A stretch of 6,249 nucleotides of DNA from a virus (IMGVR_UViG_2778261571_000006); one strand, 5' to 3'; shown: positions 2,605-5,166, numbered from the stretch's first letter. Program-made: numbers and translations. Notes: generated from the letters alone by a model not told the origin.

Positions 2605-3000
2605 CTAACCTCGCATGTCAAAGCCAGATTTCTGAAAATCTCTGTAGACTTCCGGATTGTTGAAGGCCGGAAATTTGGCTTTATGAGCTGCGGACTTTAT
2701 CGCTTCGCAATAGGCTTTATCACCGTTACTGGTAGATATTTTTAACGCCGTGCCATCCTGAGAGAATTCCATATGCAACCTGCATTTTTTCCCTTTCCAG
2801 TTATGCGGCTCATCAAGTTTGGCATTAATTGCAGCTCTGATTCCCCGCGCTTGCGCCCCCCATTCATCCTGATCATCCCAGCGTCCTGAACTGCAACTAC
2901 CTGTAGCAGTAGTTTTGTGGCAATCTGAAGGGTGTAAAGGTGTGCATCCCGCAACAAAACCGACCCAAAAAGTCAACATAACGATTTTCTTTAATCCCAC
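2605..3000 (-). CDS. Outer-membrane lipoprotein with a divergent TolA domain III-like C-terminal domain
   Basis: ORF 2605..3000(-), 131 aa, GTG start preceded by GAGGAG at 6-nt spacing. Signal peptide MGLKKIVMLTFWVGFVAGC with lipobox VAG-C and Thr at +2. The C-terminal region (…KGKKCRLHMEFSQDGTALKISTSNGDKAYCEAIKSAAHKAKFPAFNNPEVYRDFQ…) has the same Cys, Gly-Asp and PEVY..F spacing as the neighbouring paralog and TolA. Confidence 0.7.
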   Translation of the reverse strand: MGLKKIVMLTFWVGFVAGCTPLHPSDCHKTTATGSCSSGRWDDQDEWGAQARGIRAAINAKLDEPHNWKGKKCRLHMEFSQDGTALKISTSNGDKAYCEAIKSAAHKAKFPAFNNPEVYRDFQKSGFDMRG

Positions 3001-3150
3001 TTCTTGCTCCTCAATCCATTAAAATCTCAGCAATAGTAGTTGTTACGTCCGCCACTGGCTCAGAGCTGACTATCCGCTAAATTTAGCTCAGTGCCGTAGC
3101 TGTGTCAGAACAAACCTAAGCCGAAACCGTTTATTACAAAACAATAAATA

Positions 3151-3579
3151 TCAGGGTTTAAAATCCAGCACCCCATTTTGAAATACTTTATATACTTCCG
3201 GCGAAGGGGGGGCAGGTATATCAGCATTCTTTATCGCATTCATCGCTTCACGACATAAATCGAGGTCTCCACTTTCTCTTTTAACCTCCAGTAGAAGGCC
3301 ATTCGGGGCCATATGCATTCTCAGTGTACACTCTTTTCCTGAATACTTACTCGCATCCCCGAACTGTTTTTCGATGGCGCTCTTGATTTGATGGGCATAC
3401 AGACGGATATCCTCACTAACATCAGAAGTACGTTCAGATGAACTCACATACTGTGTCTCTATTGCTTTATCGGAGTAATATGATGTACGGTCATGATAAT
3501 TTGTCGATACAGCATCAGTGCACCCGATAATAATCCCACTAATAATCAACGTAAGAATTGATGCGCTACGAAAACCCAT
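3151..3579 (-). CDS. Outer-membrane lipoprotein with a TolA domain III-like C-terminal domain
   Basis: ORF 3151..3579(-), 142 aa, ATG preceded by GAGGAAAA. Signal peptide MGFRSASILTLIISGIIIGC with lipobox IIG-C and Thr at +2, then a Ser/Thr-rich linker. The C-terminal about 85 residues (IRLYAHQIKSAIEKQFGDASKYSGKECTLRMHMAPNGLLLEVKRESGDLDLCREAMNAIKNADIPAPPSPEVYKVFQNGVLDFKP) align closely with the E. coli TolA C-terminus as I recall it (…QIKSAIESKFYDASSYAGKTCTLRIKLAPDGMLLDIKPEGGDPALCQAALAAAKLAKIPKPPSQAVYEVFKNAPLDFKP). Confidence 0.8.
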   Translation of the reverse strand: MGFRSASILTLIISGIIIGCTDAVSTNYHDRTSYYSDKAIETQYVSSSERTSDVSEDIRLYAHQIKSAIEKQFGDASKYSGKECTLRMHMAPNGLLLEVKRESGDLDLCREAMNAIKNADIPAPPSPEVYKVFQNGVLDFKP

Positions 3580-3608
3580 TTTTCCTCACATATGTCATAT
3601 AGTAAAGG

Positions 3609-3638
3609 ATTATATATACCGTTGTTTTGGACGCTCAA
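3609..3638 (-). promoter_or_regulatory. Candidate sigma70 promoter for the lipoprotein pair
   Basis: On the minus strand, TTGAGC (-35-like, 3633-3638) and TATAAT (3609-3614) are separated by 18 nt, about 30 nt upstream of the 3579 start codon. Found by eye only. Confidence 0.3.
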
Positions 3639-3696
3639 ACAGCGAATCAGATCAAATAAAACGCACATTTGTTAACATTTACACAAAGTCTGCGTG

Positions 3697-3717
3697 GGAT
3701 ATTCTGAAAGAATATCC
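3697..3717. promoter_or_regulatory. Perfect 21-bp palindrome GGATATTCT-GAA-AGAATATCC (candidate operator)
   Basis: 9-bp arms with a 3-bp spacer, about 60-100 bp upstream of the candidate lipoprotein promoter. No adjacent T-run on either strand, so it is not terminator-like. Confidence 0.35.
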
Positions 3718-4170
3718 ATAATGTGGAGAGAATCTATTGAAGTGCATGGTGCCGGGTGCCTCCCGGTGAACAAAATGTTCGTGATACCTGTCGGCGACAG
3801 AAAAGGTTAATGGTATCACCCCACCGCACAGGGGGATTCACCATGCAGGAGTTTTCTTAGCAAACTCACTGCGCGCCCGGCAACTCCCAACCACATAAAA
3901 TGCGGAGTTTGTGGTATTTATGCATATAACTCGCAGGAATTATCTTAAAAAACTGATGTCGATCCGGATTAAAAAGAAGCAGGTCATCATCAGATGACTG
4001 GAAAAAAGGAAAACAAAAAATACTCATCATACAGTTTTGATTGCAGGGATGAGCCTGCTATGCACAATATGCAGAATATAAGCAAGATAAAAATATGCAG
4101 GCATATTATTTCGGATTTTGTTATTAACACAACCTTTTTAATAATCATTTGGCATACAATAAACCAGCCC

Positions 4171-4196
4171 AAAAAGAACCGCCTAAACAGGCGGTT
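4171..4196 (-). terminator. Intrinsic terminator (minus strand) in the late-leader region
   Basis: 8-bp stem AACCGCCT / AGGCGGTT (4177-4184 and 4189-4196) with loop AAAC, followed on the minus strand by CTTTTTGGG. Confidence 0.5.
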
Positions 4197-4440
4197 GGTC
4201 AATACAAAGGATGCTTCGTCTTTATTATAGTAATCTGAGGCGTCGGGTGTCTTGTATCAGACAACATATTGTCCCGCTAAACAGCGAATTACAAACCACC
4301 CTGCAATGATCTCTCATCTCATTTTATATGAGTTGACGACATCAGGATAACGCATCATCAGCCCCTGCCAAGAAATATCAAAACTCCCGCCAGCAATGTG
4401 TTATCACAATATTGTAAAAAAAACACAGCACCGAAACTAT

Positions 4441-4479
4441 AACTGGTCTCTGTTATAATTTGGAGCAGAAAGACCAGTT
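4441..4479. repeat. 9-bp inverted repeat (AACTGGTCT … AGACCAGTT) enclosing a TATAAT hexamer
   Basis: Arms at 4441-4449 and 4471-4479; the 21-nt spacer contains TATAAT at 4454-4459. Confidence 0.3.
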
Positions 4480-4516
4480 GCCCAACTAGCAGCATTCTCC
4501 CCTGCTTTCCTGACGT

Positions 4517-4543
4517 AAAAAAACCGCATTAAGCGGTTTTTTT
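4517..4543. terminator. Bidirectional intrinsic terminator just downstream of the Q-like gene (tR'-like position)
   Basis: AAAAAAACCGC-ATTAA-GCGGTTTTTTT: a GC stem flanked by a 7-A run and a 7-T run, so it is U-tailed on both strands. It lies about 80-105 nt downstream of the stop at 4624 on the minus strand. Confidence 0.6.
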
Positions 4544-4623
4544 ACGATGTCCATGTCTGCAATCCGCCTCGCGATACAGCTTTGCGAAGCATAGCAAAAT
4601 TGAAGCAGTTTATACGTAAGAAA

Positions 4624-5166
4624 TCAAGCCATTTTCTCAGCAAATGATTCACGCATGGGAATATATAGGGCATACTCAGCAACAGCTAACCAATTAGCAA
4701 TCCGTTTTTCGCATGTGCTAAAACACCACTCTGGGTGTGCATCATTTAGCAATTCAGCCATTTTGCGCTTAGTCATCCCCCGCCCTTCATAGCGTTGCCG
4801 GAGAATGCAAATCAATCCTGGATGCTCTGCCAGCACCTCACTTATGACTCGATCAATACATAACGCCTCTGCATCAGTACAATGCGCCAGCCAGCTCTTT
4901 TGCTTGCCGTTGATCATCTCTCGCAAAAACGCTTCCAGCTCAGCTTTCTCTATTCCCGCTTTTTTCATTCTGCGCAGGGCTTCATTAATGGCTGTTTTCG
5001 TCAGTTTTTTGGATGCCAACAACTGATTGAACATATTCCCTGACCTGCCACCGCCAATATACGACCAGCGCCCCCACATACGTAGTTTTCCCTGAATCCA
5101 GACACTTTCCAGCGTGGTGAGGCGAAGGTGTTCTCCGCTTTTTCCTGTATTCGTTGGGTAAATCAT
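4624..5166 (-). CDS. Candidate late-gene antiterminator (Q-like, phage 82/21-type); family assignment uncertain
   Basis: ORF 4624..5166(-), 180 aa, ATGA-overlapped with the upstream gene. It is the last gene before the terminator and leader region that precedes the lysis genes, which is where Q sits in lambdoid phages. It has an RMWGRW motif reminiscent of the ERWGAW motif I recall in Q82-family antiterminators, and several Cys residues. Confidence 0.5.
   Translation of the reverse strand: MIYPTNTGKSGEHLRLTTLESVWIQGKLRMWGRWSYIGGGRSGNMFNQLLASKKLTKTAINEALRRMKKAGIEKAELEAFLREMINGKQKSWLAHCTDAEALCIDRVISEVLAEHPGLICILRQRYEGRGMTKRKMAELLNDAHPEWCFSTCEKRIANWLAVAEYALYIPMRESFAEKMA

Follow-up and report, generated by a model that had tools for sequence, protein, structure and literature searches.

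The described late-control systems closest to the locus considered here are those of phage 21, of Gifsy-1, and of lambda and the Shiga toxin (Stx) phages. In phage 21 the late promoter PR' directly follows the gene for the antiterminator Q, and the Q-binding element (QBE) is located between the -35 and -10 hexamers (PMC6606751). A -10-like pause element is present in the first transcribed bases of phage 21 PR', the bubble of the arrested complex extends from +3 to +15, and the terminator tR' follows some tens of nucleotides on. In Gifsy-1 the gene upstream of isrK encodes the experimentally studied antiterminator AntQ (PMC4825925), and a promoter after this gene gives rise to IsrK (RF01394), an RNA of ~77 nt whose terminator is partly read through. 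The lambda 6S RNA and StxS are also short constitutive PR' RNAs that end at tR' in lysogens, and StxS, from the PR' of an Stx phage, shows that such an RNA can act as a regulator (PMC7547250). Here we compare with these systems a stretch of 6,249 nucleotides from a virus (IMGVR_UViG_2778261571_000006; hereafter the window), in which a gap of 1,044 nt (3580-4623) lies between a Q-like gene of the DUF1133 family and genes for TolA-like lipoproteins. All features given below are on the minus strand unless stated otherwise.

We read this gap, with a probability of about 0.78, as the composite late-operon leader of a defective Rac-type lambdoid prophage, in which a cognate promoter, Q-utilization site and terminator (PR'/qut/tR') follow the Q gene. 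In order, its parts would be the PR'/qut/tR' cassette, a module of ~290 nt with a second terminator, one unit of the STnc100 small RNA (sRNA) family, and the promoter of a cargo gene. A preliminary description of this DNA had already proposed a pR'/qut/tR' late-control leader; the Q21-family homolog upstream and a conserved promoter/-10-like/terminator module both argue for that proposal.

The DUF1133 Gene and the Q21 Family

The gene immediately upstream of the gap (4624-5166) encodes a protein of 180 amino acids (aa) that matches the Pfam family DUF1133 at E = 2.5e-107 and, at the borderline, PF06530 (26.1 bits against a cut-off of 26). A search of the PDB with this single sequence returned a mere hint of phage 21 Q (E = 0.27). 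A profile built from 30 DUF1133 family members out of the collected loci matches the phage 21 Q structures 6P18 and 6JNX at E = 6.8e-10 (41.9 bits), over residues 6-46 and 57-153 of 162. This span includes the recognition helix, of which a T and an R are conserved between the DUF1133 family and phage 21 Q; protein identity between the window and phage 21 is ~20-25%. The homolog in Rac-type phages is annotated as antitermination protein Q, and a survey of Stx phages assigns it the name 'Q antiterminator' by HHpred (PMC8136144). Furthermore, one locus in E. coli (L009) and one in Salmonella (L013) encode an 84-89% identical protein immediately upstream of genuine isrK matches (67-76 bits). This is the position given for AntQ in Gifsy-1 and therefore supports the identity of the protein as Q. 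Judged by these sequence comparisons, the DUF1133 protein is a Q21-family late antiterminator, and the premise of the preliminary description, that the gap follows a Q-like gene, holds. Lambda Q falls into another protein family.

DUF1133 Q genes that are 58-100% identical to the E. coli one also occur in records from unrelated hosts, namely a Candidatus Nanosynbacter metagenome-assembled genome (L012), a Vagococcus sp. (L018) and Actinobacillus phage vB_Apl-pPE4 (H77). Contamination or mis-binning in public records is the likeliest cause.

A Conserved Cassette Downstream of Q

The comparison covered 5 phage loci and 51 genomic loci, which encode DUF1133 proteins 31-99% identical to that of the window. 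Nearly all DUF1133 loci exhibit the same succession of elements after the stop codon: a -35 hexamer (TTGAYW or TTGCAA), a spacer of 17 nt, a TTnAAT-like -10 hexamer, 5 nt, the hexamer TAnGCT, a conserved box, and a GC-rich hairpin with a T-run. The cassette is distributed among Escherichia, Citrobacter, Klebsiella, Enterobacter, Serratia, Yersinia, Xenorhabdus, Providencia, Proteus and Edwardsiella, and its promoter/-10-like/terminator module is conserved even where the Q proteins are just 31-45% identical. The predicted layout is that of the phage 21 PR'/QBE/pause/tR' architecture.

In the window, the promoter sequence TTGATT-N17-TTCAAT lies at 4599-4627. Its -35 hexamer (4627-4622) overlaps the stop codon of Q (TGA, 4626-4624) and its -10 hexamer is at 4604-4599. 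The preliminary description had the sequence and strand right and the coordinates wrong, placing the promoter at 4584-4612, some 15 nt away. It had also called this promoter weak, which is fair because only 8 of 12 positions match the sigma-70 consensus, under the threshold of the scanner. The promoter is taken as real because its position is conserved in relatives; it is kept after Q in loci whose Q proteins are 31-97% identical.

The promoter spacer, TCTTACGTATAAACTGC (4605-4621), is the candidate Q-binding element, on the basis of the family pattern and by analogy with phage 21. Across the DUF1133 family the spacers are patterned rather than random and take the forms TTACGyATAAA, TTACCGAnAAAG, TTGCGCGGAAA and GTGAGCmAGAAA. 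Inspection of the window spacer, unlike that of phage 21, reveals no TGAGCA repeat and no other evident direct repeat. In the Klebsiella/Enterobacter subfamily the half-site of the phage 21 QBE does occur in spacers, as TGAGCA or TGAGCC. The leaders of this subfamily (L004, L014, L016, L019-L023, L025, L026, L028, L031, L032, L034 and L040) accompany Q variants of 185-192 aa; many of their spacers carry one of these two hexamers and others carry TTGCGCGG. A related CTGAGC, with which the box CGGGACGTTAAAGCGAACTGAGCA ends, recurs in these leaders ~27 nt past TAnGCT and could be a second Q contact or a coincidence.

Five nucleotides past the -10 hexamer lies a second -10-like hexamer, TATGCT (4588-4593), which by its conservation and by the geometry of phage 21 PR' is a candidate sigma-dependent pause element at about -1 to +8. 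TAnGCT is found at the equivalent place in 44 of 51 distinct loci, as against 9.8% of shuffled sequences. It is followed by the conserved box TCGCAAAGCTGTATCGCGAGGCGG (4564-4587), kept as TCGCRAAGYTnTAYMCGCA in loci from Escherichia, Serratia, Yersinia, Xenorhabdus, Providencia and Edwardsiella. The window's box TCGCRAAGCTGTAYC, an additional element next to the pause element, has no described counterpart in phage 21. It may pair as a 5' hairpin of the leader RNA (UGCUUCGC/GCGAGGCG), which appears in the minimum-free-energy fold. A consensus 5' hairpin was sought with MAFFT and alifold and rejected, as this analysis gave the terminator only; the UCGC...GCGA stem and one apparent compensatory change in the leader (L051 vs L052) were noticed by eye only.

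The First Terminator and the Predicted Leader RNA

The cassette ends in a tR'-like intrinsic terminator (4514-4546). Its 14-bp hairpin (4546-4533 / 4527-4514) has a CCGC/GCGG core, with an A7 run before it and a U7 run (4523-4517) after it, and is predicted to be highly stable (dG = -19.7 kcal/mol, z = -5.2, with 0 of 200 shuffles as good). The terminator is bidirectional in form because of these two flanking runs, and it corresponds to the bidirectional terminator that had been reported downstream of Q at 4517-4543. A pattern scanner overlooked it because its T-run pairs with the A-run. In a strict scan, 42 of the 53 DUF1133 loci possess a perfect-stem terminator 40-95 nt past the Q stop.

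From the positions of the promoter and this terminator, a short leader RNA of ~75-80 nt (4516-4595) is predicted when Q is absent, and in 19 of 20 members of the family 64-80 nt separate TAnGCT from the T-run. The leader would thus yield a short terminated RNA without Q, like lambda 6S, StxS and IsrK. The lambda 6S RNA is 194 nt long as compared with the ~75-80 nt predicted here, and both 6S and StxS are unrelated in sequence to the leader of the window.

The leader was also considered as IsrK itself, and this was rejected: it scores 21.6 bits at 4590-4517 against a gathering threshold of 50, and genuine IsrK represents another module. The weak score is due to similar size and a similar terminator and not to homology. 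In L009 and L013, related Q genes precede true isrK matches of 67-81 bits. The Gifsy-1 system differs further in that a C4-like RNA and then an antirepressor gene come after IsrK, and in that the leader of the AntQ subfamily possesses neither TAnGCT nor the box. In a separate observation, true isrK matches are overlapped by the c4-a1b1 model (L009 and L039) and followed within ~25 nt by a C4 antisense RNA match; these isrK/C4 loci are located at 3575-3776 in L009, at 290-476 and 3588-3768 in L013, and at 453-656 in L039. Together, the isrK and C4 matches suggest that isrK-orf45-anrP of Gifsy-1 looks like a P1 immI-type (c4/ant) module situated after a DUF1133-type Q.

From this anatomy and by homology with Q21 we infer how the leader would operate. 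RNA polymerase would start at the weak constitutive sigma-70 promoter that overlaps the Q stop, and sigma region 2 would re-bind TATGCT near the transcript start, pausing the polymerase. From its site in the promoter spacer, the DUF1133 protein would then load onto the paused polymerase and place a nozzle on its RNA-exit channel, as published for phage 21 Q. Once modified by Q, the polymerase would run through the terminators at 4546-4514 and 4196-4167, and through later ones, and would transcribe the cargo and lysis genes. Without Q, transcription would stop ~75-80 nt out and leave only the short terminated RNA.

The Post-tRNA Module and the Second Terminator

Beyond the first terminator, alignment with relatives that carry tRNA arrays reveals a conserved spacer module of ~290 nt (4168-4460). 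Homologs of this module (L059 2501-2764, L061 2501-2623, L058 2355-2796 and L008 4356-4437) are all found just downstream of tRNA genes, and the aligned sequence ends at a conserved second intrinsic terminator, t2; the mean column identity among aligned relatives is 66%. The preliminary description had listed a second minus-strand terminator at 4171-4196, and the t2 hairpin with its T-run (AACCGCC-TGTTTA-GGCGGTT followed by CTTTTT, 4167-4196) is indeed present there, oriented for the minus strand only. It is preceded by a conserved single-stranded CATCCTTTGTATTGACC, and is conserved in L008, where the top pair has undergone a single compensatory change (UA to AU). E. coli SE11 (NC_011415.1) is identical to the window over at least the part of this module at 4160-4262. 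Terminator t2 belongs to the post-tRNA module and not to the pR' unit. The single-stranded CATCCyTTGyATTGACC before its hairpin resembles the 3' end of an sRNA, which is only a lead.

Relatives L058, L059, L008, L011, L032 and L036 possess 2-4 tRNAs at the equivalent position, and the tRNA arrays of lambdoid late leaders (ileZ-argN-argO, in Stx phages and their relatives) occupy the same place, with tR' on one side and cargo or lysis genes on the other. The suggestion that some lambdoid phages carry tRNA genes here is thus true of the relatives but not of the window itself, where ARAGORN found no tRNA gene, Rfam gave no tRNA match at E up to 10, and no remnants are recognizable. Because its module aligns with the post-array sequence of these relatives, the window is a tRNA-less version of a common late-leader layout that has kept the conserved post-array sequence.

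The stretch from tR' to STnc100 is specific to this prophage lineage, with few diverged relatives, and the post-tRNA module is unannotated in 513 E. coli genomes. Several other identities for this DNA were considered and rejected. As a structured RNA, the t2 module showed no significant predicted fold beyond its terminator (z = -1.5), with only 2 of 47 pairs covarying in 3 sequences. As decayed STnc100 units, the spacers did not qualify, as the window contains one unit and the similarity of the t2 module is marginal and confined to relatives (E = 0.009-0.04). Searches for remnants of protein genes gave no match of the stretch to phage DNA and none to Pfam or PHROG families. Known Pas sRNAs were excluded by their location, since PasB is in the tail-gene region and PasA/PasD2 flank an esterase gene; the sole window match to the PasA/PasD2 locus is a marginal one of 36 nt inside the STnc100 region (E = 0.01).

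The STnc100 Unit and the Cargo Promoter

The preliminary description had supposed that the extra length of the gap may hold further regulatory RNA and had suggested an Rfam search for structured RNA. The supposition is borne out, as this search returned one strong match, to STnc100 (RF02076) at 3690-3876 (86.6 bits against a gathering threshold of 47, E = 3.6e-18, full model 1-206). An nhmmer profile from which the window and its close relatives had been excluded delimits one unit of the STnc100/PasD family including a conserved upstream block (3666-3950, E = 1.5e-29) and found no second unit in the window. The core includes a closing helix (3846-3839 / 3751-3744) and the invariant boxes AATCCCCCTGTGCGGnGGGG and CACCGGGAGGCACCCGG (3838-3819 and 3768-3752), which are essentially unchanged among copies. 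In the centroid fold this core is multi-branched, with the 8-bp closing helix around CCCCC/GGGG and CCGGG/CCCGG hairpins. Over 15 copies, 15 of 26 pairs covary, including 6 of the 8 in the closing helix, and the window retains all of them.

The STnc100 family is multi-copy and is transcribed in uninduced lysogens of enterohemorrhagic E. coli (EHEC), with one copy verified by Northern blot, and RpoD binding at STnc100 was detected in LT2 by chromatin immunoprecipitation with exonuclease digestion (ChIP-exo). A copy ~75 nt downstream of stx2B overlaps the Hfq-bound EcOnc27, and a 2026 preprint relates STnc100 to the Hfq-dependent PasD sRNAs. The window unit shares with STnc100, PasD and EcOnc27 the multi-branch core, the invariant boxes, the strand, and the place between Q and the lysis genes. 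It differs in its surroundings, the window copy being 110 nt upstream of a cargo gene and not downstream of one.

The 3' end is also different. In the window copy the 3' hairpin is AT-rich, lacks a U-tract (GGATATTC-TTTCA-GAATATCC, 3697-3717) and runs into CACGCAG, whereas canonical copies instead have GCCCCTC-TCCGG-GAGGGGC-T6. The AT-rich hairpin in place of the GC terminator is common to the window, L058_a and phage mEp460. Because the usual 3' terminator is absent, the STnc100 transcript probably continues as far as the lipoprotein gene, which lies 110 nt further on. A promoter of its own, TTGCCG-18-TAAGAA (3883-3854) at the position of the PasD2 promoter, was considered and is not established, being weak and having no T at position 6 of the -10 hexamer. 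Upstream, a third weak terminator-like hairpin (3983-3998; GTCATC-TGAT-GATGAC then CTGCTTCTTT, z = -3.0) falls in the conserved block that precedes STnc100.

Elsewhere STnc100 is found in tandem arrays, with four copies in L060 (2810-3925), three in L058 (2936-4293) and three, one of them weak at 30 bits, in L065 (2522-3179). The copies are spaced ~200-400 nt apart, and all of them are on the late strand in the interval from Q to the lysis genes. The arrays adjoin differently annotated Q proteins. Several internal units are without a GC terminator, which is present in the final unit of the array in L058 and likewise in L060.

The window is 100% identical over 3580-3770 to phage mEp460 (L062), upstream of the TolA gene of that phage, and ~80% identical further upstream; the part of L062 concerned is 2992-3292. 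The mosaic joint at ~3770 falls inside the invariant box CACCGGGAGGCACCCGG, which suggests that the conserved core serves as a recombination crossover point for the swapping of cargo. The cargo gene has a promoter and a ribosome-binding site of its own, which make up the last ~60 nt of the gap (3638-3580): a sigma-70 promoter-like sequence, TTGAGC-N18-TATAAT (3609-3638), matches the consensus at 10 of 12 positions, and the lipoprotein gene starts at 3579 with a Shine-Dalgarno GAGG ~8 nt upstream.

Prophage Setting and Coding Status of the Gap

The window represents a lambdoid prophage's late region, the genes of which are on the minus strand. Upstream of the gap are DUF1367 (6052-5453), YbcO (5453-5163) and the 180-aa DUF1133 protein (5166-4624); downstream are two lipoproteins with a TolA C-terminal domain (3579-3151 and 3000-2605), a holin of the phage 21 type (2410-2138), an endolysin gene split by an IS3-family insertion sequence (IS), and Rz. 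In strain CP53 the gap sits in a Rac-type defective prophage adjoining trkG, ynaK and hokD. Identical gap DNA (100% identity) is found in >400 complete E. coli chromosomes, where it carries no RefSeq annotation, and the gap is present in ~8-9% of complete E. coli genomes (446-513 of 5426).

The preliminary description of the gap as AT-rich and without a convincing open reading frame (ORF) agrees with the present data. Its GC content is 0.404 against 0.467 for the whole window, a modest difference, with a minimum of 0.347 at 3877-4167. The largest ORFs within 3580-4623 or reaching into it measure 30-78 aa, and none has a significant match in Pfam or PHROGs, the best (E = 0.024-0.05) being far below curated cut-offs.

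The endolysin region (~305-2138) is interrupted by a plus-strand element at ~700-1990 that carries overlapping orfA and orfB (714-1124 and 1082-1987). The N-terminal signal-anchor part of the endolysin is in ORF 2138-1821 and the lysozyme domain in ORF 802-305; the lysis cassette of the prophage is inactivated because this insertion splits the gene. The two TolA-C-domain lipoproteins (E = 2.4e-23 and 1.3e-14) are paralogous and constitute cargo, located after the late leader and before the holin; a promoter-like site precedes the first of them. It is a matter of speculation that phage-borne TolA-III-like domains could interfere with Tol-dependent entry of colicins or phages.

Alternative Explanations

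Several points weigh against a functional late leader. The prophage is defective, its signal-anchor-release (SAR) endolysin being split by the IS3-family element, and the cassette may be a relic; the 100% identity over >400 genomes may reflect shared ancestry rather than selection. The pR'-like promoter is weak by consensus and its start site is placed by prediction, no direct-repeat QBE like that of phage 21 is identifiable in the window spacer, and the STnc100 copy, besides its missing canonical terminator, is near the low end of the scores of the copies examined (86.6 in a range of 51-191 bits). It is therefore conceivable, if unlikely, that the elements of the gap are recognizable relics without current function, kept by descent in a dead prophage. 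Such a history would account for the split lysis gene, the lost tRNAs, the replaced STnc100 terminator with its atypical 3' end, the further IS elements (IS3, IS5 and IS1) in related copies of the locus, and the observation that the region is either 100% identical or absent among genomes, with few intermediates. It sits less well with an intact Q ORF, with a promoter, TAnGCT, box and terminator that all fit the family consensus, with intact cargo lipoprotein genes and promoter, and with the general expression of STnc100 copies in lysogens.

Somewhat less improbable, and compatible with the late-leader reading, is a role for the short pR'-tR' RNA as a trans-acting Hfq-dependent regulator rather than a mere by-product. 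The predicted 75-80-nt RNA has a 5' hairpin and a single-stranded linker and ends in a GC hairpin with U7, the usual Hfq module, and both StxS (PMC7547250) and IsrK, the latter downstream of a DUF1133-type Q, provide precedents; yet the RNA has no sequence homology to IsrK (21.6 bits vs 50), and its conserved parts are better explained as DNA or pause signals. Rather doubtful is the view that STnc100 is a cis-acting module of the late transcript with a crossover core and that, separately, the conserved leader box is a new component of qut. This view starts from the tandem arrays of 2-4 units, always on the late strand and beside Q proteins of several annotated types, and from two boxes that hardly vary although the surrounding sequence has diverged. 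Candidate cis roles may include a processing or stability element, a protein- or RNA polymerase-binding element, or a serial terminator-insulator, which would hold the lysis genes off before Q comes into play. That the late strand of the gap encodes small proteins appears very improbable. The best candidate, a hydrophobic ORF of 45 aa (4495-4358), is on the right strand and starts 20 nt past the tR'-like terminator, but no gap ORF has a Pfam or PHROG match, and this one has poor Shine-Dalgarno spacing, indels among aligned relatives that are not multiples of three, and no annotation in any RefSeq genome.

Conclusions

Every component of the gap belongs to a known kind. The less ordinary features are the conserved box after the pause element of DUF1133-type leaders, the tandem STnc100 arrays of related late leaders with their invariant cores, and the mEp460 joint inside such a core. 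An unannotated 1-kb gap in E. coli is thereby resolved into recognizable regulatory parts, including an sRNA family implicated in the biology of EHEC and enteropathogenic E. coli (EPEC), and both the short leader RNA and the STnc100 unit deserve annotation. The cassette could also be used as a compact Q-controlled switch. For DUF1133, a family of 'unknown function', the locus offers a concrete and testable late-promoter architecture, and ties the family both to the mechanism of Q21, for which structures are solved, and to AntQ/IsrK in Salmonella.

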